A stretch of 37,632 nucleotides of DNA from positions 1 through 37,632 of the forward strand of contig RBNJ01000185.1 in the NCBI GenBank assembly GCA_003990765.1, written 5' to 3'. The translations under genes were made by a program, and so were the position numbers. This document shows, one piece after another, positions 1,181-34,039 of this stretch (positions within the stretch are counted from its first letter, which is position 1; each line of letters opens with the position of its first letter). Below the pieces are notes generated by a model. The model worked only from the letters and a program-made list of their open reading frames with translations. It did no database searches and was not told the DNA's origin. The stretch comes from Jimgerdemannia flammicorona (taxonomy: Eukaryota).

Positions 1181-1217
<37 letters not shown>

Positions 1218-1486
1218 CTTGGCGGGGGGGACGGTCTTTGAATTATCAATTACTTGAATTGATATCAAAAAATTGGAACGAGATATGTAACGGTTTAATT
1301 AATGCATATGATAGAGGGTTTCTATAGTTCGCTCGACGTTATTCAATCTTATATAAACTTAGAATGAAATATAAATGGTGATGACATAAAATAAAAGGGC
1401 ATGCTTATAAACTAGATTTTTAAGGTATATATCCTCTATCCCTCCCATCCCAAACCGACAATTAGACCTATCTCTCGACGTTCCCT

Positions 1487-6744: not shown

Positions 6745-6757
6745 AAAAGGGGAATAA
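6745..6757 (+). promoter_or_regulatory. Polypurine tract of element A
   Basis: AAAAGGGGAATAA immediately before LTR start TATAATGAAATTA (TGTAATGAAATTA in the second copy). Confidence 0.75.
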
Positions 6758-8673
6758 TATAATGAAATTACATTCTAATATTATAAAGGATGATATCATC
6801 AAGCTGATATTATTGGATTTGTATCACCAGTAAGATTACATACTAAAAAAATTAAGAATATTAGTAAGATCATAATGATTTTATACTAATTTTAGCTCTT
6901 TTTAGCTAGTAATATCATAGTAGTCACACTATTCTCTTTACTAGTTTAGTATATACTCACACTGATATCACTATAAATATACCTTAGAAATAGACTAAGG
7001 ATGCTAAAAATAGTATAGAACTAAATCAGTCTTCAGCTATATTGATGTTATAAACTAAAATAGTTTATAATATTATAGAAACTAGAATATATATATATAC
7101 TGATATTATTAGCTCTCTGATATCAGAAACTAGTAAGATCTTCAAAACTAGTGACTTCATGAACTAAACTAGACTATGATAAGTTATGAAATCATGATTA
7201 CTATATATTAAAATAGTTTATTTGATAAACAAATAAATATCCCATAAATTGGTTCTGAGAAATAATTATCTATACAAATATATAAATATACCCTCTAAAA
7301 AACAAAACTAAATATAAATAAATCATGCCCTCACCTTCTGAATATGTTTATGAAGTTCTCTAGAAAGTAGTCTATAATTATTACAACTAGTATAACTAGG
7401 AATATGTTGATCTTGATACTTATAATATAGAGTAGTTTTTAGAAGTTGCTGATGAGATTGCTGTAAGAATACAATCAATCATAAGATATGTCCAAATACT
7501 AAGAAATTATCAGACTGATAAACTCTTAGTATATAGTGGCTTAATTCTATCAGAGGTTATAGATGAATAAAATATCTCTATTTTCAGATAGTATATTCTA
7601 GTTTATACCTATCAACTACTCTATAGAATGCCCTATGTTATTAATGGTATAAGAGAAGTAACTCTTGCAGAAATTAGTAGTCTTGATGACTAATTAACAA
7701 GTCAAATTGAGCTAGACCTCATAAATGGCTTTAATCTGCAAAAGTACTATAATGATGATATATATATAACTATTGAGAATTAAGTCTTCAATAGACTCAT
7801 TAGTCTATTTTAAGTACTTACTTCTCAGGTTTAGATATCTACAAATATCTGACTATAAGGAATTTCTATACCATTTAATATAAGACTAGTCTCATTAATA
7901 TCTATACCATTATCTGTAATCACCAGATCAGAACTAGACTCTGATGAGTTTAGTATTATATTATCTAAATCCAAGACTCTGAGAGAAGTCTTATCTCCTT
8001 TCAGAAAAGTCTGTTACTACTTCATGATATAATATAATATATTATAAAGTCTCAGTCAAAATTTAGAATAATTACTTTATAGCTAGTATATAAAAATAAT
8101 ATTATTAAATAATATTATTATGACTTTATGATAACACTATTATAGTATAACTTTTACATTATTTCTAGTAACTTTTTATCTTATTTTTCTTAGCCAATAG
8201 TTAGTCAATGTTATGTAAGAGATCTTCAAAATATATAAATACTCTTAGAGAAATAACTCAAAAACTTTCAGAATTTACAGAATATTAAATAAAGAACAAT
8301 TAAGACTTAAGTCTATAATATATAAATAAGTTCCAGAATAATCTCCAATAGAAAGACTACATCTAAAAATAGATGTCCTGAACTCTATAAATACTTGAAC
8401 TCTGAAGAATCTAAATATAATTATCAGAACCAGACTATCTTAAAAAAAAAAATACTAAAAGACTTAGACTTTAAAGAATTAAAATCTGTAATTATCAAAT
8501 TATTATCTAAGTCTATCAGAAGGAGACTAGATCAATTAGAAGTACAACAGACAGTACTTAGACATTAAGACAGCTACTTCCTCAAGCTACAGATACCTAA
8601 TATAAGTATCTCTAAGTTATTAATATCAAGGATCATTAACTTAAAGAGTATAATTATTATAATAATGAAGATA
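6758..8673 (+). repeat. 3' LTR of element A (~1.9 kb, last ~10 bp missing); TATAAATA at 8234-8241
   Basis: Colinear with the reverse complement of 32103-34039; differences are mostly transitions. Confidence 0.9.
7325..8032 (+). pseudogene. LTR(U3)-encoded ORF of family A (~235 codons), decayed
   Basis: One frame from ATG 7325 (MPSPSEYVYEVL*KVV...) without frameshift. Several stops read W or Q in the second LTR copy. Aligns to the LTR ORFs of B and C. Confidence 0.75.
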
Positions 8674-9459
8674 AATTTAGTATATCTAAGCAGATCACAA
8701 TATGTTTAGTTAATCTCAAGTAATACTAGAATTATTATTATACTAAGTAAGAGTTTCTCCTATAGTTTGAAAAAAGAATTATAGTCTGTAAATAGTAAGT
8801 ACATATACTAACTGATTATCTATAAACTTTATATTTATTACTAAAAATTATTCAATATATCTCAGAGTACTTTTGTATACTATCTGCAGTATAGTATTTC
8901 TTTGCTTTAAATTTCATATTGTCCTTGAACAAAGTATTTAATATCAGCTTATATAGAATAGTAAGTAGATCTCAAATATTTACTAGTTCAAGTTTTAGAC
9001 ATATGAGTGATGTTAAAAATGTTACAATTGAAGAGCTAATTTGAAAAAGAGAATTATTAAATATTTATCAATTTAATAGAAATATTAACTATTTAATTAT
9101 ATACTACTCTATTTTTGGCTACTATATCTAAACATTTTATCATCTCTCTTAAGTTTATGAACTAGAGGGGCCTATTTACTATTGAAATTCTTCTATCTGT
9201 AAATATATTAAGAAGTTTATCTACAATCTTTAGGATATATTTCTACTTCAAAACAATAAATACATGAGTCAAATTTCTCTATCATTCTTTCAAAGATATA
9301 AAAGATTATTTATATCAGTTATAAATACCTATTTGAGTTTAGAAATCAATTTATTATACTATATAAGTATTTTCTTACTATTGATAATCTGATTACCAGT
9401 TAGTTTATAGATAATATAATTCTCACCAAACTTCAATATAGTAGATGGGCTTCTCTGAT

Positions 9460-9570
9460 CTTAAATTAAATTGTTATTCTCTCTGAATAATTATCATTTC
9501 TCTTAAATTGAATTGTTATTTTTACTGAACAATAGACTTTTCTATTCTTAAATTAAGCTGTTATTATGAA
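9460..9570. repeat. Imperfect ~42-44 bp tandem repeat (CTTAAATTRARYTGTTATT core x3)
   Basis: Core recurs at ~9460, ~9502 and ~9547. Confidence 0.55.
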
Positions 9571-10020
9571 ACCCAGATAAGTAGATAAAGATAGATCATT
9601 ACTGCTGATATTATCTTGAATTATATATACTCAGTATAATTATCTGAAACCTTCTAAGTTCATTTATATAGATTGCTCAAACTTGAAATATGTATAGAAT
9701 TCAAGATTAACTTATGAACTATAGATAAATTTATAGACAATAGTAGTATAATATTAAAGTTACTATAATATTAATAAACTGATAAACTTATCATCTGATA
9801 TTATATAAGTATATTATACATTTTACAGATATATCAAGTTAATCTTAAGACAGATTTGTACTTTAAGTTATAATATAAGTAAGAAAGCTTCATATTGATA
9901 GTAGATTTAAAGTAGAGAAGAATTTAAAGGAATATGAATTTTAACAGTAAGTTTATGATTATGAAATATACTGGTCTAAAATGAAATTATTTATCTAATT
10001 GGCTTTGTACTTTTACTCTT

Positions 10021-10075
10021 ACTTAATATGCTTACTTAATATACTTGCTTAATATATACTTATTTAATATACTTA
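10021..10075. repeat. Imperfect ~13-bp tandem repeat (ACTTAATATRCTT x4)
   Basis: Direct reading of acttaatatgctt acttaatatactt gcttaatatatactt atttaatatactt. Confidence 0.55.
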
Positions 10076-10127
10076 TACTTTATTATATTAACTAAACTTA
10101 TTATATTATTATATTCCTCAAGATATA

Positions 10128-10278
10128 TTGTGGTCTTAATGACTCACAGTTAGTCATCATTACTCATCTTATAGTCTGGATAAGTCATGCCATATGATCT
10201 TCTTGTGCTCTGATCTGGTGGCTTGTAAGGAATTGCTGTCTCTTGTACTGATGTCATCATTCTGAGATCACTGTTACA
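10128..10278 (-). repeat. Remnant (first ~150 bp) of element B 3' LTR
   Basis: Matches ~17316-17466; starts TGTAACAG on the minus strand directly after the PPT. Confidence 0.85.
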
Positions 10279-10639
10279 TCTTTCTCCTAGATAAGGATCT
10301 TCTTGAACATTCTTATTCATTGGTCCAGTTCTGAAAAATTTGCTAATCTAATAACCTCTGGCAGGGGGTTGAAAAGTAGTGTTTATGGGCTGATATCTTC
10401 CTTATGTATTTTGGTATGATGGTGAAGGGTCACTCCCTTCATATAGAGCAAGGGCCTGATTCTGATCTTTACCAATCAGTTGATGGTTTGAACTCCTCTG
10501 GCTTCAAAAGTCTTATGGATGAGTAGTTACTAGTACTATATCCCTTAGAGAATAGTCTAGACAGATTGCCTGCTAGTTACAGGATATGCTGTTATGATTC
10601 ACAGACTAGAACCTTACAGGTGGTCATTATGTTTTGCTT

Positions 10640-13600
10640 CTCTTGTATAGGTTTATAATACTTCTTGAGTCTGTTCCTGTATACTATGGTAGACAGTATG
10701 GTCTCTGAGAGTTTTCTAAGCCAGAAAGTAGTTCTCTTGATATCTTACACATAGAAGAGTTCTTCCCATTTGGGCTCTAGTTTTCATAACCATGAGGCTT
10801 CTACTATATTTCAATATAGTAGGACTTTTTCTCTAATTTGAATGAGTTCTAGGGTCTTGCAATTCTTTTCTGCATTCTTTCTCATCAGCACTTGTAACTT
10901 GATGATGTAATCTTTAGCCTTCTTTCTGATTTGGTGTAGTCTCCAGATTTCTGAGTCAACCTATCTCTAAGTTAGGTCTAGATTTATAGCTGAGATTTCA
11001 TCAGAATCTTCTTTTCTGAAGAGTAGTTCTCTTAAGGTAAAGTATGTACTCTGTGACTATATGTCTTGTAGGACAGAGAGGGTAGTTGAGAGGTAGTTAT
11101 CCCAATTTTCATATGTATCTGAGATCTTCACCAGAATATTCTTGAAGGTCTTGTTGGTTCTCTCTGTCTATTCATTTCCTTGAGGGTGGTATACAGTGGT
11201 CTTGATATACTGAATATTATATTTCTAATATATTATCTCATAGATCCATTGACAAATTCTGTACTGTAGTCTGTAGTGATTTGCTTTGGTGTCTTGTAGT
11301 GGTAGATGATTTCTCGGTATAAGAAGTCAGCTATAGAGAGGGCATTGGCTTCTTATAATGCTCCTGCTTCTATCTATTTGGTAAAAAGATCTACAATAAC
11401 TATAATGTAGTAGTTCCTGATAGTGTTACTAGTAGTGATTCAATGATATTCATTGCAATATAGCAAAAGGAGATAGGCTCAATTCTTAATGACCCAGATG
11501 TCTGGTCTTGCTGATCTTGTTGCTGTTTTTGGTACTTATCATACCCTTTGACAAATTGGCACAGATCTTCTTCCATCTTGGACCACTATATAGTTCTTTT
11601 TGTCTTATCATATATATTAGTTTCTCCTAGGTATCCTTGTTCATACATATACTTCTTTCATTATTTAATACTTCTTATATTCAGGTATTATAAGCTTTCC
11701 TCCTTTTCTAAGTATAGTGTTGTCTAGTTCAAACTATTTCCAAGTCTGATTAATAATGGTAATTATCCAGGGTTTGAGATGGTTGAGCATCTTCTGCTAC
11801 CTAAGGTAGCTGATTAATCTATAGTATAACTCTTTATTCATATTGAATAGTCTTGATGGAGGTGTTTTGGAGTGTCCTTGAGAGTACATCAGCATTGGCA
11901 TTAGTTCTTCCTGAGTGGTACTTGACAGTACAGTTATACTCTTGCAGCCTGTAGATCTATCTGGTATATATTCTTTTGGAGTTCAGAGTGTAGAATAGCT
12001 AGGTAAGAGCAGAATAGTCTGTTTGAATAGTGAAGTGTTTTCCAGCTAGGTAGTAGTGGAACTTATCTACTACCCAAACTACTGCTAAGTATTCAAGCTT
12101 GTATGACTCATAGTTCTGTTCTGCTCCATGGGTACCTCAGCTTACATAGGAGATGACATATTCATGTCTATCTTTCTTCTGAGCTAGGACTGCTCCAAGT
12201 CCTATAGCACTTGCATCTGTCTGCAGAATGAACTCTAGGTTTCAATCTAGTCTTCTGAGGATGGGTGCTTGAGTCAACCTGGTCTTGAGTTCATTGAAGG
12301 TTCCTTATCATTCCTTGGTCCATTCAAATTTGGTCTCCTTCTTCAGTAGCTTGTAGATAGGTGCTGCAATGTTAGAGTATTCTTTGATGAATCTTCTATA
12401 GTAGGAGGCCAGTCCAAGGAAGATATGGACTTCTGTAGTTATTCTGGGTCTTGGGTAGGCTGTAATAGTCTCAATCTTCATGGAGTCTGTGTGGATTCCA
12501 GTCTGGTTGATGAGGTGTCCTAGGTAGATGATTTTCTGAGCTACAAACTTACACTTCTTGGGCTTAATGTAGAGGTCATGCTCCTTGAGCTTCTTGAGAG
12601 CTAGCTGTATATGGTTGATATATTCCTGTACAGTATTGCTGAAGATGATCACATTATCAATATAGACAAAGAGCTATTTTCCAATCTCATTGCTGAAGAC
12701 TCTGTTCATCATTTACTAAAAACTTACTGGGGCATTGTACATTCCAAATAGCATTTGCAGGTAGATATAGGTGACATCAGGTATAATGAAAGCTGATTTC
12801 TCACTGGTATCTTGAGTGAGACCAATCTGATAGAAGCCTGAGAACAGATCCAAGATAGTATAGTATTTGGCTTTACTTTCAAGGGTGGTAAGGATTTCTT
12901 GAATATTTGGCAAGAGCTGTCTATTCTTCTTGGTAATTACATTGAGCTTCCTGTAGTCAATATAGAGTCTCAGGGCAAACTCTCCAGACTTGCTTTCTTT
13001 CTTTGAAGCAAGGACAATGAGTAAAGCCTAGGAACTGATAGCTTGCTTGATGATTCCAGCTTCTTCCATTTCCTTGAGTTCTGCTCACAGCCATTCTCTA
13101 TAGGTAGGTAGTATAGGTCTGGCTTTCTGGTAGATGGACTTGGTATTGCCAGTGTCAACTTCATAGTAGTACTTGGGTTCTTGATTGTGGATATCCCTGA
13201 AGTCTGTAGTAAGTACTCCTTCATTCTGGTGCAGGATCTTGAGAAGTTGTTCTTCCAGGGGAAAGTTTTCTCCAATAGTATATGTGTGCTTATTCTGGTT
13301 CTTATCTTTCTTGTACTCAAGTTCAGTAATCTTAGTGACAGTATAGGTTTCTCTTCCAGTAGATATAAAGCCTTATTCTTCTCTCTTAGTCTTGATGAGT
13401 TTGATGGCTTTGGTGATCTTAGGCTTCTTGATTTCATAGATCAGCATCTGGTCAATCCTGTTATGCTTCTTGACTTTGAATGAGGTGGTGGGGTTGTGAT
13501 TCTTAACTATGAGGAAGATCTTACCAGTATAATCAAGGTCAATTACTCCTCCTTCAACTGAGATTTCATTTTTGGCCAGACTGCTCCTGGTCTTGATAAT

Positions 13601-15850
13601 TCTGGTATGGTTCTCTGGTAGCTTGACTCCAATTCTAGTACTAAGTAGAGTGGTGGTCTGTGGTTTAAGGGTAGTATCTTGAATACTGGCAAGGTCCATC
13701 CCTATGGCTCCTTCAGTCTTGTATTCTGGGATCTTGGCTTTGAGGTAATTTGAGAGTGATGTCTGGTTCTTGTTCCTCCTCATCATCACTATCAGCTTGA
13801 AGCTCTGAGGGCTGGTCATCTTCTTTGGCTTTCCTTTTTGCTTCAGCAGCTTCTTGCTCATGCTTCTGTTGGTGGATTTTCCTGACTTCACTGATACAGG
13901 ACCAGCAGTCATTCAGGTGTTCAGAGCAGTATATCCTAGTATCATGGGGGCATCTTCCTTGAGGAGCATAGCCATCAATGATCTTGTTGTACTATGCTCA
14001 TCTGTGAGCTTGGATATCTTGTTCTTATTCTTGTTCACCAAGTACATAAAGACTTCTGTGTCCTCTTCATCTCTTTTCTCTATATCTGGTAGAACTCTTT
14101 TATGGACATTAATAGAGACTTATACCTTTCTTCCTCTATAGTTGATCTACATCTTCTGGGCATTGAGGTCAATGATGGCCTTAGCCTTGTGAAGTCATTG
14201 GTTGTCAATGAGGATGTCATAGTTGGTAGTACTTGTAACAATCACATCTACTGAAATGATAGCTCTTCCTATCTTGATGGAGACTTCTTGGATTTTGCTA
14301 AGAGGGGTAGCTTATATACTATCTGCTATAATATAGACCATCTTGGTGGACTCTTCAATGTCTCAGCCTAGGTGGTCAATTGCCTTCTTGCTTATGAGAT
14401 ATTCTCCAGTACTGATATCAATAATGGCATCAAAGATACAATCTTTGATCTGATATGGAGTATAGGCTGATGTTTTGTACTAGTCTTCAGATTTTTTGCC
14501 TGAGTCTTCTTGATCATCTTCTTATACATTGTGAGCTTCTATGATTTTGCATTCTTGGTTCTTGACAGTAGTTACAAGTCTTACTCTCAATTGCTATCTG
14601 AAGGTAGGGACTTTAGCTAGTTATCCAAAAGTAGCATTGACCTTCTGTTTCTTGAGGTCCTTATAGATATTATACTGGTAGATCTTGGTCTTATACAGCT
14701 TCTGTTTCTTCTTGCTTTCACTTTCTCCTAAGACTAGAGTAGTGTCTTCAATGATTTAGCAGATAGCTTCATCTAACTCCATATCTTGATCAATCTCCTC
14801 AAGTTGGGTCTTGCTTTGAATAGTAACAGCTGGGGTCTTCTTCAGTCTTCCAACTGGCTTGCTGTTGCTCTTCTTATCATAGGGCTTGAACTGGGTTCTA
14901 GTATCTTTAGTAATAGGGTAGAATTTGGGCTTTTCATAGTATTCTTCATCATCAGTATCACCAATATTCTTGATGACTACTGTATTGATTTGTTCTCTAG
15001 TTCTGGTAGCATTACTTGGTTGGGCTTTGTATCTTGTTTCAGTTATGTAACTCTTTGTATAGTGGCCTTCTTCTCTACATCTGAAGCATATGATATTGCA
15101 TTCTTCTGTAGCAGCTACAAATCTCTGTACTGGTCTCCTGTTGGTGCTTCGGACTTCTCTAACAACATTACCAAGGTGTGCAATTATCTTGGCAAACTGC
15201 TGGGCAAGTTCCTCCACTAGGTCAGCTTTGGTCATCTTGGAGATAGGTGGGAATAGTTGTCTGTTGATAGCTATAGTAAGTATAATACTGGTTGGCTTTG
15301 ATGGCTCCATATTGATGCCAGTTATTCTTTCTATTGAGTGTTTGGCAGAGTATCTGATAGTCCAATATCTCTGTATAAAGACTACTTTCTAATCAAGAGT
15401 CAGAGCAGCTGGGATAGACTGGATTACTAGGGCAATTTCATAGTAGACTTCTTTTAGGAAAATTGAATCAGCTATCCATTCCTTGAGAGTATTATCATAG
15501 TCAGCCAAGACAATCTGGTAGCAGATTTGGGTATAGAATGAGTTGGAATCTTTGCTAAGTCCCTAGCAGATATATAGTATTGAATTGATCTTTGAGAGCT
15601 TACTTAATCTCTTCAGTATAATATATAGTTCTGAAGAAGTTCTTCATATTGATAAGTTTGGCTATACCAGTATCAGCAATAGTGACTGCATTGAACTTGT
15701 CTCTAGTAGGTCCTCTGAGGCTAACTGGTAGAAGGGCCAATTGTATATCTATAGTGAGAGCTCATATAGTGGCAAATTATTCAAAGTCTTCAATGAAGGT
15801 CAGAATTAACTCTTCAGTAGTAAATCTATAGAATATAGAGAGACACATTT
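10640..15850 (-). pseudogene. Element B gag-pol pseudogene
   Basis: CFRCREEGHY knuckle (~15080), protease AIIDIST / YDILIDNQ*L, RT (LDLFSGFYQI, FGMYNAP, VYIDNVIIFS, FLGLASYYRRFI), RH (LQTDASAIGLGAVL, ANADVLSR), IN (KTTVYHPQGN, KLEPKWEE). Boundaries approximate. Confidence 0.9.
13358..13750 (-). pseudogene. dUTPase domain within element B pol (between protease and RT)
   Basis: Trimeric dUTPase motifs GAIGMDL, RSSLA, GGVIDLDYTG, RIDQML and REE*GFIST. Confidence 0.9.
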
Positions 15851-16051
15851 CTATCTTATCTTGAATTCTTGCAGAGAGTGACTCTTGTAGTCAGAGTAGT
15901 TATTGTGGTAGTTATTCATTTTTTAGCTTGAAAGTGAGAGATTTGTCTTGAATTACTAGCTAATGAGTACTAAGTTATTACATAGTAGGTGCTGAGTTCT
16001 TCAAATAGTCAGATTCTCTTCAAGATATATCTCTTAGACTAACTACAAGTT

Positions 16052-17466
16052 TGTTATAAGCAAGTTCTTATTGAAGTGCCTTCTCAAGGTCTTATAGTCC
16101 TCAAACTTTTTATCTTTAAACTGTCTTATTATCTCTTAGATTGCTTGTATAGAATTGAGTATAAATGAACTAAGAGAACTAAGTGGACTGACTTTATTTC
16201 AAAGAAGTATTTATATATAATATAATTAAGATATAAAGCTAAATATAAATTTCAATAATTAAATAAAATACTGAAATATAGAAAACTTCAGATATAAGTA
16301 CAAATTTGAGTACCTGTATAGATGGTTGTATAAGTTCAGAATACTAGTAGATTTCAGTTGTACAAGAAAAGGATGTCAGAAGATTCAGATATTACAAAGA
16401 ACTTAGAGTAGAATGTTCAGAATTCTGGAGACTTCATCTTCATCACTGCTAGAGGTTGGGATATCCTTGAAGAAAATGAGATTGGTGAACATTTCTGTGA
16501 GTATTTCATTTATTTTACATATATCACTAATTAGCAGGATGATGGCATCATTAATGATATTATTATATTTAGCAATAGAGAGAGCAAGGAGATATGGGGC
16601 TCTCCAATCTACAATATTCTCTTCTACAAAATAAGAGACAAATGTGGAGTCTTGGAAAGGTCTAATCTGGATACTGGGGCCTTAGAATACTGAGATCAAT
16701 CCTTGCAGGAATTGATCTAGATTATTCTGGAGAATGGAATTCCAGAACTCTTCTATCTCATCACTATTGAGAGTGATGATTGATTGGGCTTCTGTGGCCA
16801 CTATGGCCTCTAGTGTATTTATGTGGTAGGCTGACAGTTTCTTGAAGTCTGAGACTCTAGTGTACTCCAAGTTGGGGATTGACCATAGTGTATACTTAAA
16901 GACCTGATGAATCTTCTTAGCTGTTCTTATTTTATATACATCCATAAGAGTGGTATCTTATATCTCTTGGGGACTGGCCTGAGGGAATTCCTGGCAGAGG
17001 AGGTTTCCTATTTCATATTCCTACCACATCCAGAGATATTTGGTAGTAGTGGTAATTCTTGTTTCTATTTTATAGCAGTAGAGAGTAAAGTGGTAGAGAT
17101 CACTAGTATCTAGATTGAGGCTAGAAGTTCTTCTAGTATAGGTCCTCATGGCTCTTCTGATGTCTTAAAACATTCTTTCTTGGACTGAGGGGCTTTGGTG
17201 GTTCCTGGACCTTGAGGTTTGGTAGGCAGCAGACATTTGTTTATAGTGAGTCTTGTTTGAGTTACAGCTGTTGCAGTTCCTTAGTCCTTCTTTTATATTT
17301 CTTGAGTCATCTATCTTGTAGTTATAATGACTCATAGTTGGTCATCATTACTCATCTTGTAGCCTGAGTGAGTTATGCTATATGATCTTCTTGTACTCTA
17401 ATCTGGTAGCTTATAAGGAAAGACTGTCTTCTGTGATAATATCACTATTCTGAGATTACTGTTACA
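16052..17466 (-). repeat. 5' LTR of element B (~1.4 kb; inner boundary tentative)
   Basis: Outer 150 bp matches the 3' LTR remnant. ORF followed by TATAAATA (16208-16215) and AATAAA (16193-16198) on the minus strand, the same layout as the element C LTR. Candidate CA end at 16052. Confidence 0.55.
16403..17236 (-). pseudogene. LTR(U3)-encoded ORF of family B (~277 codons, 4 internal TAA/TAG stops, no frameshift)
   Basis: MSAAYQTSR...LNLDTSDLYHF...MW*EYEIGNLLCQE...AKKIHQVFKYTLWSIPNL...LQNNLDQFLQGLISVF*GPSIQI. Includes track ORF 16682-16945; homologous to the element C LTR ORF. Confidence 0.8.
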
Positions 17467-17532
17467 CTATAAGATAAAAAGCTTCTCACTTTTATCCAAT
17501 CTCTATAATTATAGAGATATTTTCTTTTAGGT

Positions 17533-17594
17533 TCCCTTTCAATAAAAATCTGCGAGACTATGAGTCTATTAAAAAAAAAAAAAAAAAAAAAAAA
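17533..17594 (+). mobile_element. Extremely 5'-truncated LINE/SINE-type retroposed insert (38 nt + ~A24) with 20-bp TSD
   Basis: AGAGATATTTTCTTTT(A/T)GGT duplicated at 17513-17532 and 17595-17614; AATAAA at 17541; polyA tail. Confidence 0.8.
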
Positions 17595-17956
17595 AGAGAT
17601 ATTTTCTTTTTGGTAAAATATTTATCTTATGGATAAACTATCAAGTTCTCTAATATATTTAGACATAGTCAATTCTTACAGAAAGACAGATCTAATAGAT
17701 GTAGATCCTTGTATTCTTTGATGTTAAAATCAAGCATATTGCTGAAACTAAGAATAAAGTAGCATATATACTCTTCCAGAGTACTCAGAAAGATGACCTT
17801 ATTATAATTAGTAATATTATCACTAGTCTATTTGAAGAAATTAAGAAGATATATATCAAAGATATCAATATATAAGAAATTGCTAAATAAATTCTTAAAA
17901 AAGATAGCAATATTATGAAAAAGATCTATAAGAATGTATCTGTTCAAAATAGCTAT

Positions 17957-20305: not shown

Positions 20306-20316
20306 TCTGCCCCTTG
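20306..20316 (-). promoter_or_regulatory. Polypurine tract of element C
   Basis: CAAGGGGCAGA directly before TGTGACG (3' LTR start) on the minus strand. Confidence 0.65.
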
Positions 20317-20366
20317 CGAAATTAGAGCCGTCCTCGGCAGTGAAGGTTACACAGAGTTGGGTGGTC

Positions 20367-23300: not shown

Positions 23301-26300
23301 ATGTCAACAGCTTTGATTGCTGAATTTGCTGAGTCTTCCTCTCTGGTACCGTCAGTCTCACCAGAGAGGGCTTGCCATTTCCCAGGAATTCAAAGACTTC
23401 TTCCTTATAGGTGTCTATCAGTGGTTCAAAATATCCCAGTGTTGTTCCCTTGGGGATAGTTATTACTTCGAAGCCCAAGTTTCTGATAGGGATGTGGATC
23501 AGTGACATCTGGTCATGAATCCATTCTTCAGTCAGGAGGATGTGGTGTTCCTTTTGAAGCTCCAGTGATGGTGCAAATATCAAGTTGTTTGCTTCTATTG
23601 GTAGGTGCACATCTAGGCCTTTTTGCTGGTAGGGCTGCAGGAGGATGTCTTCTCTTGCTTGGATTGGGCAGCAGATGTGGGGTCTCATTTGTCGGAATTG
23701 AGCAACTGTTGCTAGATGAATCTTGATAGGTGGTGTCTGTAGATTTCTATTGGTGCTTCTAAAGCCTCCTTGTCCTCTGTTGGTATCTTCTAGTTGGTCT
23801 ACCTCTTGGATGGTCGGCTGTGATGTCTTGATAAACAGGATTTGGCAGATGGCTTCCATAGGACTGAAGAATTGGCTGGTTCTACTAGAATTGTGGATAA
23901 TGGCCTTCAAGGGACCTCGGTAGTCCTGATTGATGACTCCTCCTTCTACTGTGACTCCTTTGGTTGCCCATGAGGATCTTGAGGCCAATTGTCCATAATG
24001 CCCTGGTGATATAGCAAGTGCAATCTGTAGGTCAAAAGTCCTGATACTTCTGGGTCGGATTCTTGCTTGGTAGGGGAGGCAGAGGTCATAACCAACTGAT
24101 CCTTCTGTTTGTGCAAGAGGTGGCTGTGCCCAGGGGGAAAGTAGCTTGACCTGGATAATTGGTTGAGCTTTGAGGAATGGCACTTCAGCTGTTGCCATTG
24201 TAGGTGAGAAGTCCATGCACTCTGGTTTGAAGAAAGGCCAGTGAGCTCCTGTCTTTGAGTTTCTTGTGTAATTGAATCCAGTCTTTCCTAGAGGGTCCAG
24301 AGCTTCCATAAGGATGAAGGCAAGGTTGATTTCTTCTTTTCCTTGATGAGGGTGGCAGTACCAGTGAATGATAGCAAGAACTTCCAATGGTAGATCCCAG
24401 ATAGAGGTCTTGCTCTTGAACTTGCAATCTCCTTCATGGTTGATTTCTTTGCACTTCTAACAGGCCCAGCGAATTCAAGGTTCTTGCAGGGTGGGATCCT
24501 TTCTCTTAACTCGGCTCTTGTAGACATCTTCGCTGAGGTGAACATCTCAATGTTCACACCAGTAGCAGGTAAAGGTTTTTCTGCAATCACAATGTCCCTT
24601 CTTGACAAAGTCTTCATTTCACTGTTTGACCTCCCTACTGGTAGGGAATCTCTTCCGATACTTGTCATAGGTGGGCTGTGTGATCTAGAGGGCCCAGGTG
24701 ATAGTGTAAGAGCTGTTGCTTTCTCCTTCAATGGTAAGGGACTTGAATGTTTGGTGGGTGAGGATCTTCTGTCCTTCCTTATAGGTCTTCTTGAAGGTCT
24801 TCGGGGTTGAGGGTTGTATTCAGCTGTGGGATGGTGCTTGCTTCAATTCATCCTTATCATCAATTTCTGGCATTGGAATCTTCTTGAGATCCAGGATTCG
24901 GCAATTGCTGCAATCATCTCTTGGTGAGTGGAAGCTGATGAAATGTTCACATATGCCTCAATGAAAGGCTTGCATAATCCGATTTTCTACCAGTGGTGGT
25001 GGTGGTTGAGCAGAAGGTCCTGCAAACTCAAGTGCTGCCCTTGTATTAATGGCTCTATCAATGCTTTCTTCCAGGCCTTCAACACCAATAACTCCAATGA
25101 AAGAGTCTTCTTGTTCACTTTCTTGATTCCTTTGAGCATCGAAATCACTTCCTAGTTCTTGTAGGAAATTGGCCTCGCTTTCATCCTCGGTAGTAGTGGG
25201 GGTATCACTATGTCCTTGCCATTCTGTTTCTGAGGCTTGATTCATCTTTTTAGATGATCCTTTCGAGTCAATGGGCACCTTGTGCTTCTGTCCATGAATG
25301 GAGAAGACCAGGAGTTGTTTCTTGATATCTACATTGGCTCCAACTCGGCTTAACCAGTCAGTTCCCAGGATCAGGTCATAGGAGGTTGCAGGGGTTACAA
25401 TGGCTTTGGGTACATTGAGGCAGGCCTTTTCAACTTAAATGGAGATGTCTCTGACAAGTCCAAGGGGTGTGGAAGCTGATCCATCGGCCATAATAACTCT
25501 TGCTTTGGTTCCTTCATCTATTCCCCATCCAATTCGCTCCAACATTCTTTGGGTGATGATGCATACTGCTGCTCCAGTATCGACAAGGATTCTGGCATTT
25601 TCACCATGCACTTTTTTATTAGCGAGTCTTGTAGATTGATGTTCATGTCACTGGCTCTCATAGACTGTGTAGATAGTGCTAGGTTCTTGAGTATGTGGTC
25701 CTTGGACTGGAAGTCTCTTGGTATCTTCCTTGGCTTCTTTCAGGAATTTTCGCCTGACCTCTGGTGCATTCTTGAGGACTTGCTCAACTGTAAGACCAGC
25801 ATTCTGTAGGCAGATATGTTTCCAAAGTGAGGCTGCTGTATGGGGCTTGCTGCTTCTTCAGTGTCTTGGTCCCTTGGGGTGTAGTCTCTCATTCCTGACA
25901 GGCATTTCATCAGCTGAAGATTCTATGCTCATATGCTCATCTTCTTCAAGGTCTGGCAGGGTAGAGCTGGGGGTTATCCTAGATGGTCCGGCTTCTGGTT
26001 CAGGAGTATCTCTTCTAACCCGCTTTTCCTGTTCTTGTGGAGTGTCTGAAGAAGAATGACCATATTGTGGATGCTTGCCTGTGGATACTGTTACTGGCAG
26101 TTGAGGTGGGGGGTTTCTTTGTGGTCTTCCTTGTCCTCGGGTCTCTGCGGGGGCAGCTTCCCATGTCACCTTGGATGGAAAAGCCTCGAAGTATGGGTAG
26201 GTGTCATCTTCTTGACCATGGAGCCAGGCTGCTTCTTCTTCCATTTCCTGAGTCTCTTCATCTACCTGAAAGAGGTTGACATTCCTGTCATTGGACTGGG

Positions 26301-28119
26301 TGGGTTGGTTCCTTGGCCAATTCCTCTGGATGTGGCCTTGATTTCCACAGTTGAAGCAGGTGGGACCATAGGAACCAGTCGCTGATGAGGCTGTAGTTGC
26401 AGCTGGTAGTGTGGGGGCAGGATCTCTGTTGTCTTGTTGCCGGTAGTCTGGTCTGTTATCACAATAGTAGTCTTGTTGTCTTCTGCCTTAGTTGTTCAGC
26501 TGGGCAACCACAATGGCCAGGTCCTTCATTTGCTTGGTGAGCATTGTCATGGGGTCTTCTTGAACTCTTGATGTTTGCTGCTGCTGTGGTTGCCTAAATG
26601 GAGTCGGATTTGTGGGTGCTGGTCTGTTCTCATAGTTGGCTATCTGGGCTCTGAGGAAGGTATTCTCTTGCTCCATGATTGTTCCTTGGGTCCTTGGGGT
26701 TTCAGCTTGGATTGGCTCAGGATAGTCTTGTACTTGTTGTACTGGTCTATAATCTGCTTCCCAACATCCTTGTGCTCCAGCAACTTGCTGTTCGATGTTT
26801 CAATATCCCATCCTGATAACTTGCCTTTGGAGTTCTGGGTATAAGCCATTGAGGAAGGTGGTTGAGGCTAGGGCCAGTTGGACTGCTGGTTGAAGGTTCG
26901 CCTTGATCATTTGAGCTTGAATCCGATGGTAGAAACTCTTGGGAGTTTTATTAGCAGCTTGGCTCATGTAGGTCAAAGCCTCCTGTGCTTCTTGTTGGCA
27001 CTCAAATCCATTGAACTGGGCACGAAGCCAGGCTTTGTGAATCATGTATCTTGCTACATGATTTCTATCAGGTTGAAGGCCATCATTCAGTTCCTCTGCA
27101 TGGATTCCTCCTCCGGCTTGCTTGGTTTGATTATACCTCTGTAGGGCTGGTCCTCTCAAGAGTGACTCTACAATTCTGAGTTTCCTTGCAGCATCCCATT
27201 GTTTAGTGGCTGCTTGGACTTCAATTTCTCCAAAGAATTCCTCGATATCTTCGTTGTCTGCACCATGGAACTTCTGAAGGTAGCTCATGTCTGGCTCGTC
27301 TTCACTATCTAAATATTGTTCAGGGGTGGGGGATCTGGCAGATCCTCGGGGTAGTGGGAAAGGTGGTGGTACTAGTACTTGATGATCTAGAGGTGCTGGC
27401 AGAGGGCGGTGTCTTGGTGAGGGTGAGGGTAATCTGGCTCTTCTAATTAATGCTGGAGTTGAAGTCCTGGATAGTGGTGGAGATCTTCTGATAGACTAGT
27501 GGTAGTGGCAAGGTGTGAGTGACCAGGGTACTGAAGTTCAAGCAACTGATGGTGGGAGTGGACTGATATAACTGATAGTGAGTTTGTCTGCCCCTTGCTG
27601 TTGTGAAGTAGTGAGGTCTTGTTCGTCTAGTTGCTGCTGTGGGTCAGTGTCACTGTCTGGATAATAGTATAGGTTGAATTCGTCCCTTTGATGGTCTGAT
27701 CCCCAATCGTCGTCTTGCTCTGGTTGATATAGATGATAGTTCTCTTCCCCTTCTGATGTTTCAAAGTATACCTGGTCTAGTGGAGTGACTCAAGTAACAA
27801 CAGTAGTTATGTAGTCACTTCTGTCTGAGTTCTTCCTATGGATAAGGGTCTGATACTCCTCGGGGATATCCTCTTCTTCTTCTTGGCCTAAGTCTTGGAT
27901 CTGAAGGGGTGGTTCTGGTTGTCCTCTGAGTCGTCTCCTTTCTCTTGAAGTCAAACCATAATCTGGGTCACTTCTTTCTTCTGATTTGGTTTTCTGGCTA
28001 CTGGTGTTGAATAGGGTCCTGGCTACTGTTCTGACAAGGGTGTGGGCTTTCTTTTCGGCTGAGGAGGGCTGTTGCTGCCCCTGGTTTGGTTGCTGACTTA
28101 GTCCTGCTAAGTTCTCCAC
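20367..28119 (-). pseudogene. Element C gag-pol polyprotein pseudogene (ancestrally one ~2500-aa frame)
   Basis: Track ORFs starting 28119, 27288, 26676, 26244, 25278 and 24387 share one frame. Motifs: gag FHGADNEDIEEF, CFNCGNQGH knuckle, PR ILVDTGAA, dUTPase, RT YIDD, RH, IN (CDTCQR, LGIDIIGPL, IITDQG, KWEGPY). Frameshifts near 23300 and 21600-21850. Confidence 0.92.
23749..24159 (-). pseudogene. dUTPase domain within element C pol
   Basis: Motifs GSVGYDL, RSSWA, GGVINQDYRG, ICQILF and RGQGGFRST (D>N and G>R substitutions consistent with G>A decay). Confidence 0.92.
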
Positions 28120-28168
28120 TGTAGATAGCTGGGTTCTTGAGCCAAATGGTCAAGTCTTTTGAAAACTT

Positions 28169-28185
28169 TCCCAGTTGAGCCTCCA
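28169..28185 (-). promoter_or_regulatory. Primer binding site of element C
   Basis: TGGAGGCTCAACTGGGA, 3 nt after the 5' LTR end; looks complementary to a tRNA 3' end (identity uncertain, tRNA-Pro-like). Confidence 0.75.
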
Positions 28186-28188
28186 AAA

Positions 28189-30541
28189 TGTGGCGTTGGT
28201 TATGTATAATAAACTTCGACTGCACGGCTCAATGCGTGCCACTTGGTGAAGCGCACGATGGATAACTGAAGGTTTTGGTGACGTTCGCGGGTCAATGGTC
28301 ATGTGATTGGGTCGTTCGATTCATGCGGTAATAATGGCAGAAGGTCGTTCGATTGTTCATTGGCTCAGGACATTGATGGCTCAATTGTTTAGTGGAAAAG
28401 GGTGTTATTGCTAACAGAGGGTGGTTACTTGGGTGTGCTGGCAGCGATAAACTTGATGGCGAACTTGAATTTATGTGGCGACGACAGGCTTGCTCTTTAT
28501 GCGGTCAATTAAAGTGGGCGACAGTCTTGACTTTAAGCAGTTCGTGGCGCAGTAGGTTGGAAATCAGTCGACGGCTCGCTCGTCCATCTTGTTTAACTTG
28601 AAAGGTTCCAGGCAGTCATTTGAGTATCTTGGCGGGTCTTATGTAGGCTGCAGTCTTGTTTTGGCTGGGTATCCTTGGTTTCCTTGGTTTTCCGGGTCTT
28701 GAATCTTGGCAGTCAAATGGTGGCAGTTGGGTAATGTTTTCTTTCCATGGCAAGAGAAAATTCTTTAACTCAAACTTCTGAGCGATCTGTTGCTCTAGGT
28801 TGTTATCTTGTTCTCAGAATTTATCCAGTCTCTTGGAGGCAGTGAGGTTTCTCAGTAATCCTTTTTACTTTTAAACATAAGCTGACTGACTGAGGTTTAT
28901 TTACTCTAAGAATATGGGTTATTTATACAAGTTTGCTAGCTATGGGGGGAGGGGGTGCGACTAAGGCTAAGGTATACTACGTGGTGGTGAACTTCGCTAT
29001 GCTATTGGTTTGCATGATGCGAGGTGCAGACTATTGTTTACTATGGATTGGGTTGTAGGGGATAGTGACGCTGGAAACGGTTGTGACAATTGTTTGCACC
29101 GAATAGGGATAAGATGGATGCTAGTGCTGGATATGGATGTTGTGGGTGGTAATGCTGGATTCGGACTTGCTGACATGATACGATGATTGTTGCCAGAAAT
29201 GGTTGTGGAGGGTGGCAATGCTAAAAACGGACTTGCTGACTAAAATGCTGAAAATGGTGGCACTGGATAGCAATGCTGAATTCGGACTTACTGACTTTGC
29301 TGACATGAAGGTTGCACAATTCTCACGGCTGATGGGTGGTACTTCTAGAGGGAATAGTAGTACCCTTCATCCGTGGTGGGCAAATCTTGCTGGGTTGCGA
29401 TTTCTTCTTCATCATATCTCTCCTCAAAGGGGGGGAGTGCCGGCCAAGAGGTGAGGGGGTAGAAAAGTGGCCAGTCATCTTCAACAACATTCTCTAACCC
29501 TTGAACAGCTTGAATGTGGACAGAGGACTGGTAGACTCTCTGTTGCTCCTCTTCTTCTTCTGGAGACTTGTCAGTTTCAGTATCAGAGGAGATTTCTTCA
29601 GGGGCAGGGTCTTGGAGTTCTTGGGCTTCCTCTTTAAAGATGGAGACCTCTTGGGCTTCTTCTTGATTCAGTTCCCAAATGACGAGATGTGAATTGTGGC
29701 TGACAGGGTGGTGGGTGGTTGGGGTAGCTCCAATGGGTGCTTCTATGGTAATGAGCGGTCCTTCAAATATCTCCATAAGACTCATTAGATGACCTTGATG
29801 GTTGTCTCAGAGTGGGGTGGTGTGGAAACCTGGCTGAGTAGGTTCAGTTTGTTGACTTCCTACGGTGACGCAGTTGCTGCCAATAGAGTTGACTACTTCA
29901 GATTCTATCCAGTCAGCATCTTCAGTTGAAAGGCAGAAGAGGCTGCCAGCTGTTACTCCTTGCAGATATGCTATAGCCCAGGGAATATGGCAGAAGATTT
30001 GATGGACATGGAGGGCTCTCTTGATTAGCCGGCTAGTGGTTAACATTTCGGCAATGAGGTCTTCTTGGTCATCTTCTTGAGTCTCTTTGCAAAGGTGGTG
30101 TCCAATTTCGTAGTCATGCCAGAGGGTCATTCGTTCAGTAGTGTCTTTGAGCTGTTGGGTCATTATATACTGGTAGTTGATGAAGTGTCCAAGGTCCTCG
30201 GTGTAGAAGTTCAAGTGTTCAGAAGTATCTGGTTGCCAGATGGCCTTCTTGATAGCTTCAAAGATCAGGGTCTTTGGGCCAGGCAAAGGGGTAGAGCAGC
30301 GGGAGGTCTGGTTGGATCGGTGAATAGGAGGCATTATGTAGTGGGTACTTGGTTCTTTGGTGCTGATCCCTGAGGCGGAGTATGGTTCCTTAAATAACAT
30401 AGTCTTCATTTTGGCTCAGATCCTCTTGTCTTCTTTTGGGATGATCACCTAATGGGTCAGGCTGTCTATTTGATTGTCATGCCATTATGTTGTCTGATCT
30501 TAGCAGTCACCGGTACTCCATTGTCAATTGTATACATCACA
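28189..30541 (-). repeat. 5' LTR of element C (2353 bp); TATAAATA 28920-28927
   Basis: Direct repeat of 17957-20305 with a 4-bp indel. Confidence 0.95.
29345..30409 (-). pseudogene. LTR(U3)-encoded ORF of family C, 5' LTR copy (354 aa, one internal TGA at 29807)
   Basis: Track ORFs 29807-30409 and 29345-29785 are in frame. The TGA is CAA in the other LTR (ancestral CGA). Confidence 0.8.
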
Positions 30542-32102
30542 CTATATATACCTTAATAATATAAGAATTTAGGTCTCTGATATCCTTATCTACTTATAAA
30601 TTCTGTAAGAACTATATATATAATATATGTATCTATAGCTAGATATATGAGATTTGACAAGATATACTAATATATTATCTGAGACTTTTACTGATCTAAA
30701 TAATATTCAATATTAAGAATTATATTATATTCTGTGATATCTGCTAAAGATACAAGCTTAGTAACTAGATACTAGCTGATACACTATAGCTATTATTAAT
30801 TCTCATCTAAAATTGAGACTATATCCAAATAAACTTTATTGTTTAGTTGCTAAAAACCAAAAAGGATAGAGATGTGATCATTGTTTTCATTGATCATCTC
30901 AGTAAGTAAATCTACTTCATTATAACAATCATTACTATAATAGTATCAGAAACAGTATGCTATTTATTGATAATATATTCTACCTTCATAAACTACTATT
31001 AGTAATTATCTCAGACCAAGATGTAAAATTTATAAATAGCTTTTAGCAAGCACTCTTCAAGAGCCTAGAAAATATCTATAGTATATTACTTACAAATAGA
31101 TGGTCAGACAGAAAGAGCCAATAAAATCCTGAAATAGATACTTAGTATCTATTGCAGCTATAAGCAAAATGACTGGGATGAAAAGCTAATCTTAGCTAAA
31201 TTTATATATAATAATAGCTTAAGTATAAGTATCAAAATAATACTATTTTATCTAAACCATGAACAATATTCATAAACTCCTATAATTGCTATCTAAACTA
31301 TAGTATTAGCTATATAAGGAATTACTGATACTATATAAAATAACATCTAGTAAGTATAAGATGTTCTTATAGAGATATAAATAATATAAGTAATATATAC
31401 TAATAAAAATAGAAGAGAAGTTTCTTACAAAAAAGAAGAATAAGTATTACTCAGCACCTAGTATCTGACTCTAGAAAATACAGACTCCAAAAAGAAGCTT
31501 GGACCCTACTATATTAGACTATTCAAGATCTTTAAAAAATATGAATCTATTATATATAAGTTAGATCTCTCAGTAATACTAGGAAAAATCCACCCAGTAT
31601 TTTATATAGTACTCTAAATGAGCTAGTTCAGATCAGATTCAAATCAGATTCAAGTTGATCTGGATCAGCTCAGATAGAAAATGAGCTGATTCAGATTAAT
31701 TTGAATCAAACATTATTTTGATTTCCAAATTAGACAATTAAATGTTTACATCAATAACTTAATATATAATCTTCTAATTTTAATAATCATTATATCATTT
31801 GAAAGCCCTTAATAAGACCTTTCTAATGATATCAAGAACATTAAAATCAGATTATACATTGCTGAGCTATGTATTAAGAAAACCATTCTTTTAAAAATTA
31901 GTAAGTTGGATAATTTTCAAAATTGGTAAGTTAGACATTTTTCTTAATAACTCAACAATACATAATCCAATTTCAATATTCTTGATATTATTAGAAAGGC
32001 CTTATTAAGAGCTTTAAAATGACACTATTATTATTAAAATTAGATAATTATATATCAAGTTATTGATGTAAACATTTAATTATCTAATTTGGAAATCAAA
32101 AC

Positions 32103-34039
32103 TATAATAGTATGTCTTTACTATTATGGTAATTGTACTCTTTAAATTAATAATCCTTGATATCAATGACTTAAAGACACTTATGTCAGGTGTCTGTAGC
32201 TTGAGGAAGTAGCTGTCTTAACGTCTAAGTACTGTCTATTGTACTTCTAATTGATCTAGTCTCCTTCTGGTAGACTTAGATAATAATTTGGCAATTATAG
32301 ACTTTAATTCTTTAAAGTCTAAGTCCTTTAGTATATCTTTTTTAGATATAGTCTGATTCTGAGAATTATATTTATATTCTTCAGAGTTCAAATATATATA
32401 GAGTTCAGGACATCTATTTTTAGATGTAATCTTTTTAGTTAAAGTTATTCAGAGACTTATCTATATACTATAGACTTTAAGTCTTGATTGTTTTAAGAAT
32501 TATTCTGTAAATATTTCTGTCCTTTATTGAGTTGCTTGTTTAGGGGTATTTATATATTTTTAAGGACTTTACATATTGACTGACTATTGGTTAGAAGATA
32601 TAAGACAGAAAGTCACTAGAAATAATATAAAAGTTATATTAAAATAGTATTATTATGAAGTCATAATAATTCTATTTAATGATATCATTTTCATATGCTA
32701 TTTATGAAGTAATATTCTAGATTTTCGACTAAGACTTTGTGATGTAATATATTATATCATGAGATAGTAACAGACTTCTCTGAAAGGAGATAAGACTTTT
32801 TCCAAAGTCTCAGATCTAGATGATATAGTACTAGACTTATCAGAGTCTAGTTCTGATCTAGTGATCACAGATGATGATATAGATACTGGTGAGGCTAGTC
32901 TCACATTGAATAGTATAGGAATTCCCTGTAGCCAGATGTTTATAGATATCTGGACCTGAGAAGTGAGTGCTTGAAATAGACTAAGGAGTTTATTAAAGAC
33001 TTTATTCTCATATAGCTATATATCATCATTATGATACTCTTGTAGATTAAAGTCATTTATAAGGTCTAGCTCAATTTGACTTGTCAATTGATTGCTAAGG
33101 CTACTAATTTCAGCAGGAGTTACTCTTCTTATACTACTAATAGTATAGAGTATTCTCTAGAGTAATTGGTAGATATGAACTAAAATATACTATCTAAAAA
33201 TAGAGATATTATATTTATCTATAACCTCTGATAGAGTCAAGTCACTGTTTACTAGGAGTCTATCAGCTTGGTAGTTTCTTAGTATTTAGAAGTGTCTTAT
33301 GATTGATTACATTCTTACAGCAATCTCATCAGTAGTTTGTAAAAACTGCTCTATATTATAAATGTTAAGATCAATATATTCCCAGTTGTACTAGTATTAG
33401 TGATCAAAGACTACTTCCCAAAGAGCTTCATAGATATATTCAGAAGGTGTGAGCATGATTTGTTTAAATCTTAGTTTTGTTTTGAGGGAGAGGTGTCTAT
33501 ATGTTTATATGACTATTGTTTAGATAATTATTTTCCAGAGCCAATTTGTAGGATATTTATTTATTTATCAACCAAACTATTTTAGTATATGGTAACTATG
33601 ATTTCATAGCTTATCATAGTCTAGTTTAGCCCATTAAGTCACTAGTCTTAAAGATCTTACTAACTCCTGACATCAGAGGGCTGATAATATTAGTAGCTAA
33701 TTTTGATATACTCTAGTTTTTATAATATCATAGACTATTTTAGTTTATATCATCAATATGGCTAAAAACTAATTTAGTTTCATATTATTTTTAGCATTCT
33801 TGGTCTATTTCTGAGATATATCTATAGTGATGTCAGTGTGAGTATACACTAAACTAGTACAGAAGCTAGTGTGACTACTATGATATCACTGGCTGAAGAG
33901 AGCTGAAATTAGTGCAAAATCATTATGATCTCACTAATATTTTTGGTTTTTCTAATATGTAACCTTACTGGTAATATAAACTTATGATGTCAGCTTGATA
34001 ACATCATCCTTTATTATATTGGAATTTAATTTCATTACA
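32103..34039 (-). repeat. Solo LTR of family A (1937 bp) with 5-bp TSD AAAAC
   Basis: Reverse complement of 6758-8673; TG...TA(CA) ends; AAAAC at 32098-32102 and 34040-34044. Confidence 0.9.
32750..33456 (-). pseudogene. LTR(U3)-encoded ORF of family A, solo-LTR copy
   Basis: MLTPSEYIYEALWEVVFDH...NWEYIDLNIYNIEQF...VHIYQLL*RILYTISSIRRVTPAEISSLSNQLTSQIELDL; many stops complementary to the 7325-8032 copy. Confidence 0.75.

Follow-up and report, generated by a model that had tools for sequence, protein, structure and literature searches.

A probable accessory gene within the long terminal repeats of Ty3/gypsy retrotransposons in Jimgerdemannia flammicorona

Retrotransposon long terminal repeats (LTRs) are usually treated as non-coding control regions and are masked by annotation pipelines; to our knowledge, genes inside LTRs are almost never found. 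A literature search for open reading frames (ORFs) in LTRs yields mostly work on mouse mammary tumour virus (MMTV), in which the superantigen gene, sag, lies in the U3 region of the LTR and encodes a type II membrane glycoprotein. Foamy viruses encode Tas, a trans-activator with an acidic activating C-terminus that is expressed from a promoter other than that of the LTR. Here we analyse a 37,632-nt stretch of DNA from Jimgerdemannia flammicorona (contig RBNJ01000185.1 of assembly GCA_003990765.1, positions 1 to 37,632; hereafter, the window), in which three types of decayed LTR retrotransposon—A, B and C—are associated with ORFs of one protein family. We consider it highly likely that these ORFs represent a selected, LTR-borne protein gene. 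That the gene is also a U3-borne accessory gene of a Ty3/gypsy group with unusually long LTRs (1.9-2.35 kb), encoding a protein with a helical core and an acidic tail that is a probable trans-acting regulator, is a reading we regard as probable.

Additional ORFs have been described in other LTR retrotransposons. In the portions available of two reports, the env-like ORF3 of Athila and errantiviruses and the ORFs of bdelloid Juno and Vesta lie between pol and the 3' LTR or before gag (PMC2864245, PMC5408684). A figure legend in the first report refers to an 'add. ORF of unknown function' in some fungal chromoviruses, and excerpts of the same report place a dUTPase between protease and reverse transcriptase in PosPlaTy3-5, and mention Tmt1 (PMC2864245). 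The excerpted description of crapaud gives short LTRs (339-443 bp) with variable U3 regions and no ORF (PMC10787394). In the passages returned by a full-text literature search, no LTR retrotransposon outside the retroviruses, fungal ones included, was reported to have a gene within its LTR; likewise, no report was found of a gene in the LTRs of dUTPase-bearing fungal elements, the original description of Tmt1 lying outside the search.

An ORF scan of the window places five ORFs on the sense strand of their own elements: one in each LTR of element C, one in element B, and one in each of two copies of the A LTR (A1 and A2). Their coordinates (Table 1) agree with those of a first-pass annotation, which had been made from the sequence alone and had aligned the three types of protein by eye. 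The C and B proteins share 28% identity over 183-193 aa (blastp, E 7e-18 to 1.6e-17). On its own, the A ORF gives a weak blastp signal (best E 8.5e-5, C3 against A2). A profile hidden Markov model (HMM) was built from 13 environmental relatives, with no window sequence included, and searched against all six frames of the 37.6-kb window at E<=10. It matched exactly five places, and nothing else: the five ORFs, each in the correct frame. Comparison at the level of profiles gave the same picture for the A type; the intact A-type relative P0025 aligns with a profile of the B, C, D and E types with an hhalign probability of 96.4% (E 1.4e-9) across 184 colinear columns, including the F-Q/E-G-P motif, and the A-type profile matches the other types with a probability of 95.9% (E 6.4e-9). 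Merging A1 and A2, with C or G taken at transition differences, gave an HMM score of 23.4 bits in the ORF frame, against 16.7 and 13.9 before merging; no other frame rose above -2.3 bits. This supportive result is superseded by the intact P0025.

These comparisons indicate that the A ORF is a distant but real member of the B/C family. The by-eye alignment was correct (C/B E 1e-17 by blastp, A-type 96% by hhalign, colinear blocks). The joint alignment retains a Met-Pro start, an H/Y-Q-[ILV] block, an L-S/N...E block, and the F-[EQ]-G-P motif. The LTR DNA of A, B and C, for which the first-pass annotation saw no obvious similarity, gives no match between types by blastn at E 1e-10, though a short TATAAATA(...)AATAA core is common to them.

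Beyond the window, seven matches were obtained among 1.84 billion representative proteins. The C ORF as query found two proteins in a 90%-clustered collection, as did the A2 ORF when read through its stops, and the profile query found 13. With cluster members included, there are 36 related protein ids, many of them fragments and all from environmental assemblies, on contigs mostly of ~0.6-2.4 kb, with one each of 4.8 and 19.4 kb. No relative was found among 131 pattern matches in a scan of viral contigs. A metagenome scan for the DNA of relatives yielded a single locus, L001, of 1535 bp; its ORF is flanked by 375 nt on the 5' side and 284 nt on the 3' side, and no LTR end is recognisable there. 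Uninterrupted, full-length forms occur in five sub-lineages whose mutual identity is only 20-45%, with invariant residues kept: (i) C-type relatives P0001, P0018 and P0022 (324-331 aa; P0001 is 77% identical to the C copy in the 3' LTR), (ii) P0004 (342 aa), (iii) the L001 type (291 aa), (iv) the B-type P0009 (271 aa, 69% identical to the B ORF), and (v) A-type relatives P0025, P0027 and P0029 (234 aa; P0025 is 62% identical to A2). The pol domains of B and C are themselves only 31-47% identical, figures lowered by the decay of B. The persistence of uninterrupted ORFs across sub-lineages this divergent, alongside B and C pol domains this dissimilar, points to selection at the level of the protein.

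The window copies are all broken. Together the five contain 25 internal stop codons, 23 of which face a Gln, Arg or Trp codon in the intact relatives; this holds for all four in B (Gln of P0009 in each case) and for all seven in A2 (compared with P0025). Every copy can be aligned over its full length without a change of frame, no frameshift being present. Between the two C LTRs there are 135 transitions (71 in CpG and 46 in CpA context) and a single transversion, and the differences between A1 and A2 are also mostly transitions. Taken together, the placement of the stops, the lack of frameshifts, and the dominance of transitions indicate that the copies were killed by C-to-T/G-to-A decay of a kind resembling repeat-induced point mutation (RIP) or linked to methylation. 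The single stops of the two C copies fall at different codons, so the ORF was open at the time of insertion. Within C, the ORF has accumulated 4.75 differences per 100 nt, against 4.8 in the neighbouring LTR segments before the TATA box and 8.0 in the segment from the TATA box to the LTR end (the R-U5 part). The CpG share in the decay of the C LTRs is unusual for a RIP-like or methylation-driven process.

The placement of the ORF inside an LTR is direct for element C. Its LTRs are a TG...CA pair, 94% identical over 2353 bp by self-comparison, and are flanked by ATAG at 30542-30545 and 17953-17956 (a 4-bp target-site duplication), with a polypurine tract before the 3' copy. Internally, the Pfam order is zf-CCHC, Asp protease, dUTPase, RVT_1, RT_RNaseH, Integrase_H2C2/rve; that is, the gag(CCHC), protease, reverse transcriptase, RNase H, integrase order of Ty3/gypsy (Metaviridae) elements. 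Element C is a bona fide Ty3/gypsy insertion with very long LTRs, each of which contains the whole ORF (~330-355 codons), beginning 132-208 nt past the LTR start and followed by ~1.15 kb of LTR.

For A, the placement is well supported, because a polypurine tract abuts the repeated unit and two independent copies have equal boundaries (self-comparison, 6760-8671 versus 34037-32115, 83% identity). A1 and A2 represent a ~1.9-kb LTR in separate insertions; being in opposite orientation, they are not the LTR pair of one element. Upstream of A1, on the same strand, lies an integrase (~4665-5720; Pfam Integrase_H2C2 and SH3_Tf2-1). These were the only two families matched, and no chromodomain was found by Pfam at E<=0.01, which qualifies the earlier designation of A as a chromodomain type.

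In B, the ORF is present in one LTR copy. The two copies are alike over only ~205-270 bp (17498-17227 versus 10319-10050), up to approximately the ORF start codon, and in transition-tolerant and purine/pyrimidine alignments the homology of the 3' copy ends at ~10109-10050. As the remainder of the 5' LTR has no counterpart below 10050, even in transition-blind alignment, the 3' LTR is truncated. By analogy with C and A, and on the strength of a TATA/AATAAA core 3' of the ORF, we infer that the B ORF also lies inside its LTR. The claim that the ORF is LTR-embedded in all three types thus stands firmly for C and well for A, and for B by analogy only. Across lineages, the ORF follows the first 130-570 nt of the LTR.

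Table 1. Positions of the ORFs, LTRs and associated sequence features in the window (L001 is a separate, environmental locus).
Feature	Position	Strand	Remarks
A1 polypurine tract AAAAGGGGAA	6747-6756	+	abuts A1 LTR
A1	~6757-8671	+	~1.9-kb 3' LTR of 5'-truncated A element
A1 upstream TATA-like box TATAAATA	7281-7288	+	
A1 ORF	7325-8032	+	235 codons; 12 internal stops; HMM 11.0 bits
A1 TATAAATA	8234-8241	+	downstream of A1 ORF
Element B	10050-17466	-	decayed Ty3/gypsy: CCHC gag, dUTPase, reverse transcriptase, RNase H, C-terminal part of integrase
B LTR start TGTAACAG	17466 (5'), 10278 (3')	-	3' copy preceded by polypurine tract AGGAGAAAGA
B core	16193-16215	-	TATAAATA 16215-16208, AATAAA 16198-16193; 3' of ORF; resembles C and A cores
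B ORF	16403-17236	-	277 codons; 4 internal stops; ~230 nt past LTR start; HMM 328 bits
B upstream TATA-like box TATAAAAG	17297-17290	-	
Element C	17957-30541	-	structurally complete Ty3/gypsy retrotransposon; ORFs broken by stop codons
C 3' LTR	17957-20305	-	direct repeat of 5' LTR; polypurine tract precedes
C 3' LTR core	~18660-18691	-	same TATAAATA/AATAAA core as 5' LTR
C ORF, 3' LTR copy	19109-20173	-	1 internal TGA, at another codon than in the 5' copy, opposite Arg of P0001; HMM 307.9 bits
C polypurine tract AAGGGGCAGA	20306-20315	-	directly before 3' LTR
C candidate primer-binding site TTTTGGAGGCTCAACTGG	28171-28188	-	TGG-containing; adjoins 5' LTR; putative, no tRNA matched
C 5' LTR	28189-30541	-	2353 bp; TGTGA...CCACA (self-comparison)
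C 5' LTR core	28896-28927	-	TATAAATA 28927-28920, AATAAA 19 nt on (28901-28896); presumed genomic promoter and poly(A) signal
Direct repeats, enhancer-like	29097-29295	-	three to four imperfect 50-66-nt units between C ORF stop and TATA box
C ORF, 5' LTR copy	29345-30409	-	'MPP' start at 30334; 1 internal TGA opposite Arg of P0001; HMM 311.8 bits
A2	32115-34037	-	second A LTR copy, inverted relative to A1
A2 ORF	32750-33456	-	234 codons; 7 internal stops; HMM 7.5 bits
L001 upstream TATA-like box TATAAAAG	296-303 of L001		

Which part of the LTR the ORF occupies can be judged from the motifs around it. All three types have a TATAAATA box followed by AATAAA, with a spacing of ~17-26 nt in the aligned cores; in B and A, the TATAAATA...AATAA core lies ~190-200 nt after the ORF. 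In retroelements with a short R, the TATA box is closely followed by the poly(A) signal, which is read at the 3' end only. This core, together with the enhancer-like repeats that separate ORF and TATA box in C, suggests that the ORF region is U3. As a U3 gene, the ORF would be present at the 3' end of the genomic RNA, after pol, and would probably be translated from a shorter mRNA, either initiated at its own promoter early in the LTR or produced by splicing; such a subgenomic mRNA would end at the poly(A) signal of the LTR itself. Among the four lineages with DNA at hand, three (B, L001 and A1) have a TATA-like box 44-80 nt 5' of the start codon, hinting at a promoter belonging to the ORF. 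C showed no such box, and the sequence of A and B is so rich in A+T that TATA-like words mean little there.

The same upstream boxes could be read in another way. If transcription began near the 5' end of the LTR, the ORF would lie in a very long R/U5 and be translated ahead of gag, as the first cistron of the genomic RNA, resembling the leader ORFs of some plant elements. We regard this as distinctly unlikely. Besides the lack of an upstream box in C and the A+T-richness of A and B, the core shared by A, B and C and the repeats in C form the usual U3/R arrangement. Further, we know of no precedent for an R of more than 1 kb in which the poly(A) signal is ignored at the 5' end, which also counts against a first cistron.

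The protein encoded by the gene is 234-342 aa long. It consists of (i) a conserved, mostly helical N-terminal core of ~190-215 aa, and (ii) a poorly conserved tail that follows the F-[EQ]-G-P block and cannot be aligned between lineages. The tails are acidic or Ser-rich, as had been noticed at first pass: they span 45-126 aa, carry a net charge of -9 to -27, and contain ~30% bulky hydrophobic residues (W/F/Y/L/I/M/V), often in short clusters beside runs of Asp, Glu or Ser. Members of all lineages resemble one another in their Met-Pro start, in length and in the character of the tail. Neither a signal peptide nor a membrane segment was found (maximum Kyte-Doolittle value for a 19-mer, 0.59-1.09).

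Searches of sequence and structure collections agree with the earlier description of the family as unrecognised, rather than as a known gag, env or accessory family: there was no credible Pfam, PDB-sequence or convincing fold match. For the C-type ORF pieces and P0001, no Pfam family passed E<=0.01. Two sets of Pfam hits were rejected as noise: an isolated, single-sequence match of ATG5_HBR to one 91-aa piece of B (27 residues, E 2.4e-5), and four unrelated families, each in one of 14 members (E 0.06-0.2, in a scan at E<=5). A sequence profile search of the PDB gave no matches at E<=10, and the ESM Atlas contained nothing at >=0.9 (its own model has a predicted local distance difference test score, pLDDT, of 0.35). 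AlphaFold2 modelled the full B-type protein with a pLDDT of 43 and the 215-aa C-type core as an all-helical bundle of low confidence (pLDDT 53.1; predicted template modelling score 0.51). Foldseek gave no PDB match at E<=0.001 (best E 1.1) and the wide VIA-align search none at Z>=5 (best Z 4.5). No DNA-binding fold was recognisable by Pfam on the alignment members, Foldseek or VIA-align.

A helical core and a position 3' of pol, as for the env-like ORFs of other Ty3/gypsy groups, would also suit a structural or entry protein; that is, a second gag-like protein or an env-like ORF3. This is very improbable. Comparison of the family with C's own gag ORFs gave hhalign probabilities of 0.5% and 1.5%, so that similarity to gag or capsid is not seen, and no gag or env Pfam family was matched—in itself weak evidence, as the N-terminal part of C's own gag also has no Pfam match. 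In addition, the signal peptide and membrane anchor expected of env-like ORF3 proteins are lacking, and the gene lies past the polypurine tract, inside the LTR, rather than between pol and the 3' LTR.

The sole hint of function is the composition of the tail. Acidic, hydrophobic-rich composition is typical of acidic activation regions and of tails that dock through short motifs, and a trans-activator or adaptor would fit the tail best. The role we favour for the LTR protein is that of a nuclear regulator serving its element in trans, either as an activator of LTR transcription or as an adaptor that binds a host factor via its tail. We put forward this nuclear, trans-acting role tentatively, as possible rather than probable. 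The first-pass proposal of a selected accessory gene shared across lineages thus holds in part: there is one family, and it is intact in five sub-lineages, while the functions suggested for it remain guesses.

Several observations weigh against a selected, U3-borne regulator. Firstly, the assignment to U3 rather than R/U5, and the mode of expression, are deduced from motifs only, and in B the ORF is present in one LTR copy only, the other ending at approximately the ORF start. Secondly, the family is small, it is known from environmental assemblies on short contigs only, and gene callers report only open frames, biasing the set towards 'intact' copies. Thirdly, the C ORF has diverged since insertion as fast as its LTR neighbours and so provides no test of selection; equal divergence is as expected of a dead copy, and says nothing about selection either way. 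Finally, conservation of the basic N-terminus does not extend to the A type, the two structure models both have low confidence scores, and no fold or family match backs any function. The bias of gene callers, together with five dead copies out of five and a protein to which no function or fold can be assigned, might suggest a captured host gene remnant or a chance ORF without present function for the element, but this is extremely unlikely given (i) the colinear similarity, with invariant residues, of five sub-lineages at 20-45% identity, (ii) surrounding LTR DNA that cannot be aligned between lineages, (iii) the retention of the Met-Pro start, length and tail character, and (iv) the lack of any cellular or longer relative among the 1.84 billion representatives (a search in which fused forms beyond 0.55-1.75x the query length were not included).

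A gene in U3 has consequences for how it would spread. By the standard mechanism of LTR formation, sequence located from the polypurine tract to R ends up in both LTRs. The ORF, lying downstream of the polypurine tract, is hence copied by reverse transcription into both LTRs at each jump; it is doubled each time and left behind in solo LTRs. Taken further, each long LTR might be a self-contained gene cassette, in which the ORF has a promoter of its own and uses the poly(A) signal of the LTR, such that solo LTRs and dead elements keep supplying a trans factor to the whole family. We consider this extension rather unlikely at present. If it were true, the factor might activate LTR transcription or blunt host repeat silencing, its U3 placement would let the gene double with each jump and outlive its element, and it would be the first such accessory gene described for a non-retroviral LTR retrotransposon.

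More generally, a gene kept in the LTRs of lineages with 31-47%-identical pol would show that the evolution of accessory genes at the 3' end is not confined to complex retroviruses but extends to simple Ty3/gypsy elements. It would provide a new protein family to probe for transcriptional activation or the countering of genome defence and, should the protein prove to affect silencing or LTR promoters, would bear on the inflation of repeat-rich genomes. Long 'LTRs' with conserved ORFs should not be dismissed as assembly or annotation noise.

The elements themselves show several further features. Both C and B have a dUTPase between protease and reverse transcriptase (C: 23290-24456, minus strand, Pfam E 8e-28; B: 13376-13912, minus strand, Pfam E 1e-22), and the two dUTPases are 32% identical. 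With this shared arrangement, B and C are members of one wider group; their description as divergent lineages is fair as regards pol, while the pol of A, the third of the supposed lineages, is too decayed and truncated for placement. ATAG stands directly before the LTR in both C (30542-30545, the target duplication) and B (17467-17470), and this common 5' flank may reflect a target-site preference of both lineages. In C, the distance from LTR end to CCHC knuckle is unusually long (~1.8 kb). Between the C 5' LTR and the recognisable gag lie ~650 nt of open frames (27541-28149, minus strand; 119 and 83 aa), for which no Pfam match was found.

The rest of the window flanks or separates this nest of decayed LTR retrotransposons. 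The left end (1-3300) is unique, with ~46% G+C, and contains a 299-aa ORF (1487-2386, minus strand) that probably encodes a host membrane protein; it matched no Pfam family, and its structural neighbour in the Atlas is a eukaryotic 'transmembrane protein' cluster (template modelling score 0.71), commonest in Mucoromycota. The 1.4 kb that separate A1 from the truncated B 3' LTR (8672-10049) have a G+C content of 21%. This segment shows no resemblance to the rest of the window above shuffled controls, even in transition-blind alignment, and was on those grounds rejected as a part of the B LTR decayed beyond recognition. Just left of A2 is a second A-like integrase fragment (31091-31445, plus strand), 68% identical to 5182-5536 (plus strand), which implies at least three A-like insertions nested in the window. 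At the right end, a tandem satellite (36127-37632; period 170-182 bp, copies 79-90% alike, ~48% G+C) directly adjoins A+T-rich decayed repeats and continues past the window end.

Of the systems described to date, the extra ORFs of LTR retrotransposons resemble the window gene, as far as the excerpts of the relevant reports go, in being genes beyond gag-pol of obscure function and restricted lineage, and differ from it in not lying inside the LTR (PMC2864245, PMC5408684). The 'add. ORF' of fungal chromoviruses, for which the figure legend was the basis of comparison, may belong to the same family (PMC2864245). In the position of the dUTPase between protease and reverse transcriptase, B and C are like the dUTPase-bearing fungal Ty3/gypsy elements (Tmt1 of Tuber melanosporum and elements of Phanerochaete and Postia). 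Like nef of human and simian immunodeficiency viruses, and tas/bel and bet of foamy viruses, the gene would occupy the 3' end of the genomic RNA and reach into U3; unlike these, which only overlap U3, it would lie entirely inside, and there is no sequence or fold similarity. An acidic, hydrophobic-studded region of the Tas or VP16-like sort is present by composition only and, by analogy, we think that the family may work like a Tas-type acidic trans-activator.

In position, sag of MMTV is, with nef, tas and bet, the nearest parallel. The window protein differs from Sag in that it shows no sequence similarity to it, no Pfam family being matched, and in that it has no membrane anchor (hydropathy maximum <=1.1), no hydrophobic segment suited to a type II membrane protein having been found. 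The host, too, is a non-vertebrate, and the carrier a Ty3/gypsy retrotransposon rather than a retrovirus. What is shared is the arrangement: as in MMTV, a poly(A) signal follows close behind the TATA box, implying a short R, and, like sag, the ORF is a sense gene wholly in the LTR, upstream of the promoter core—as seen in both LTRs of C and in A—and is thus carried in both LTRs.

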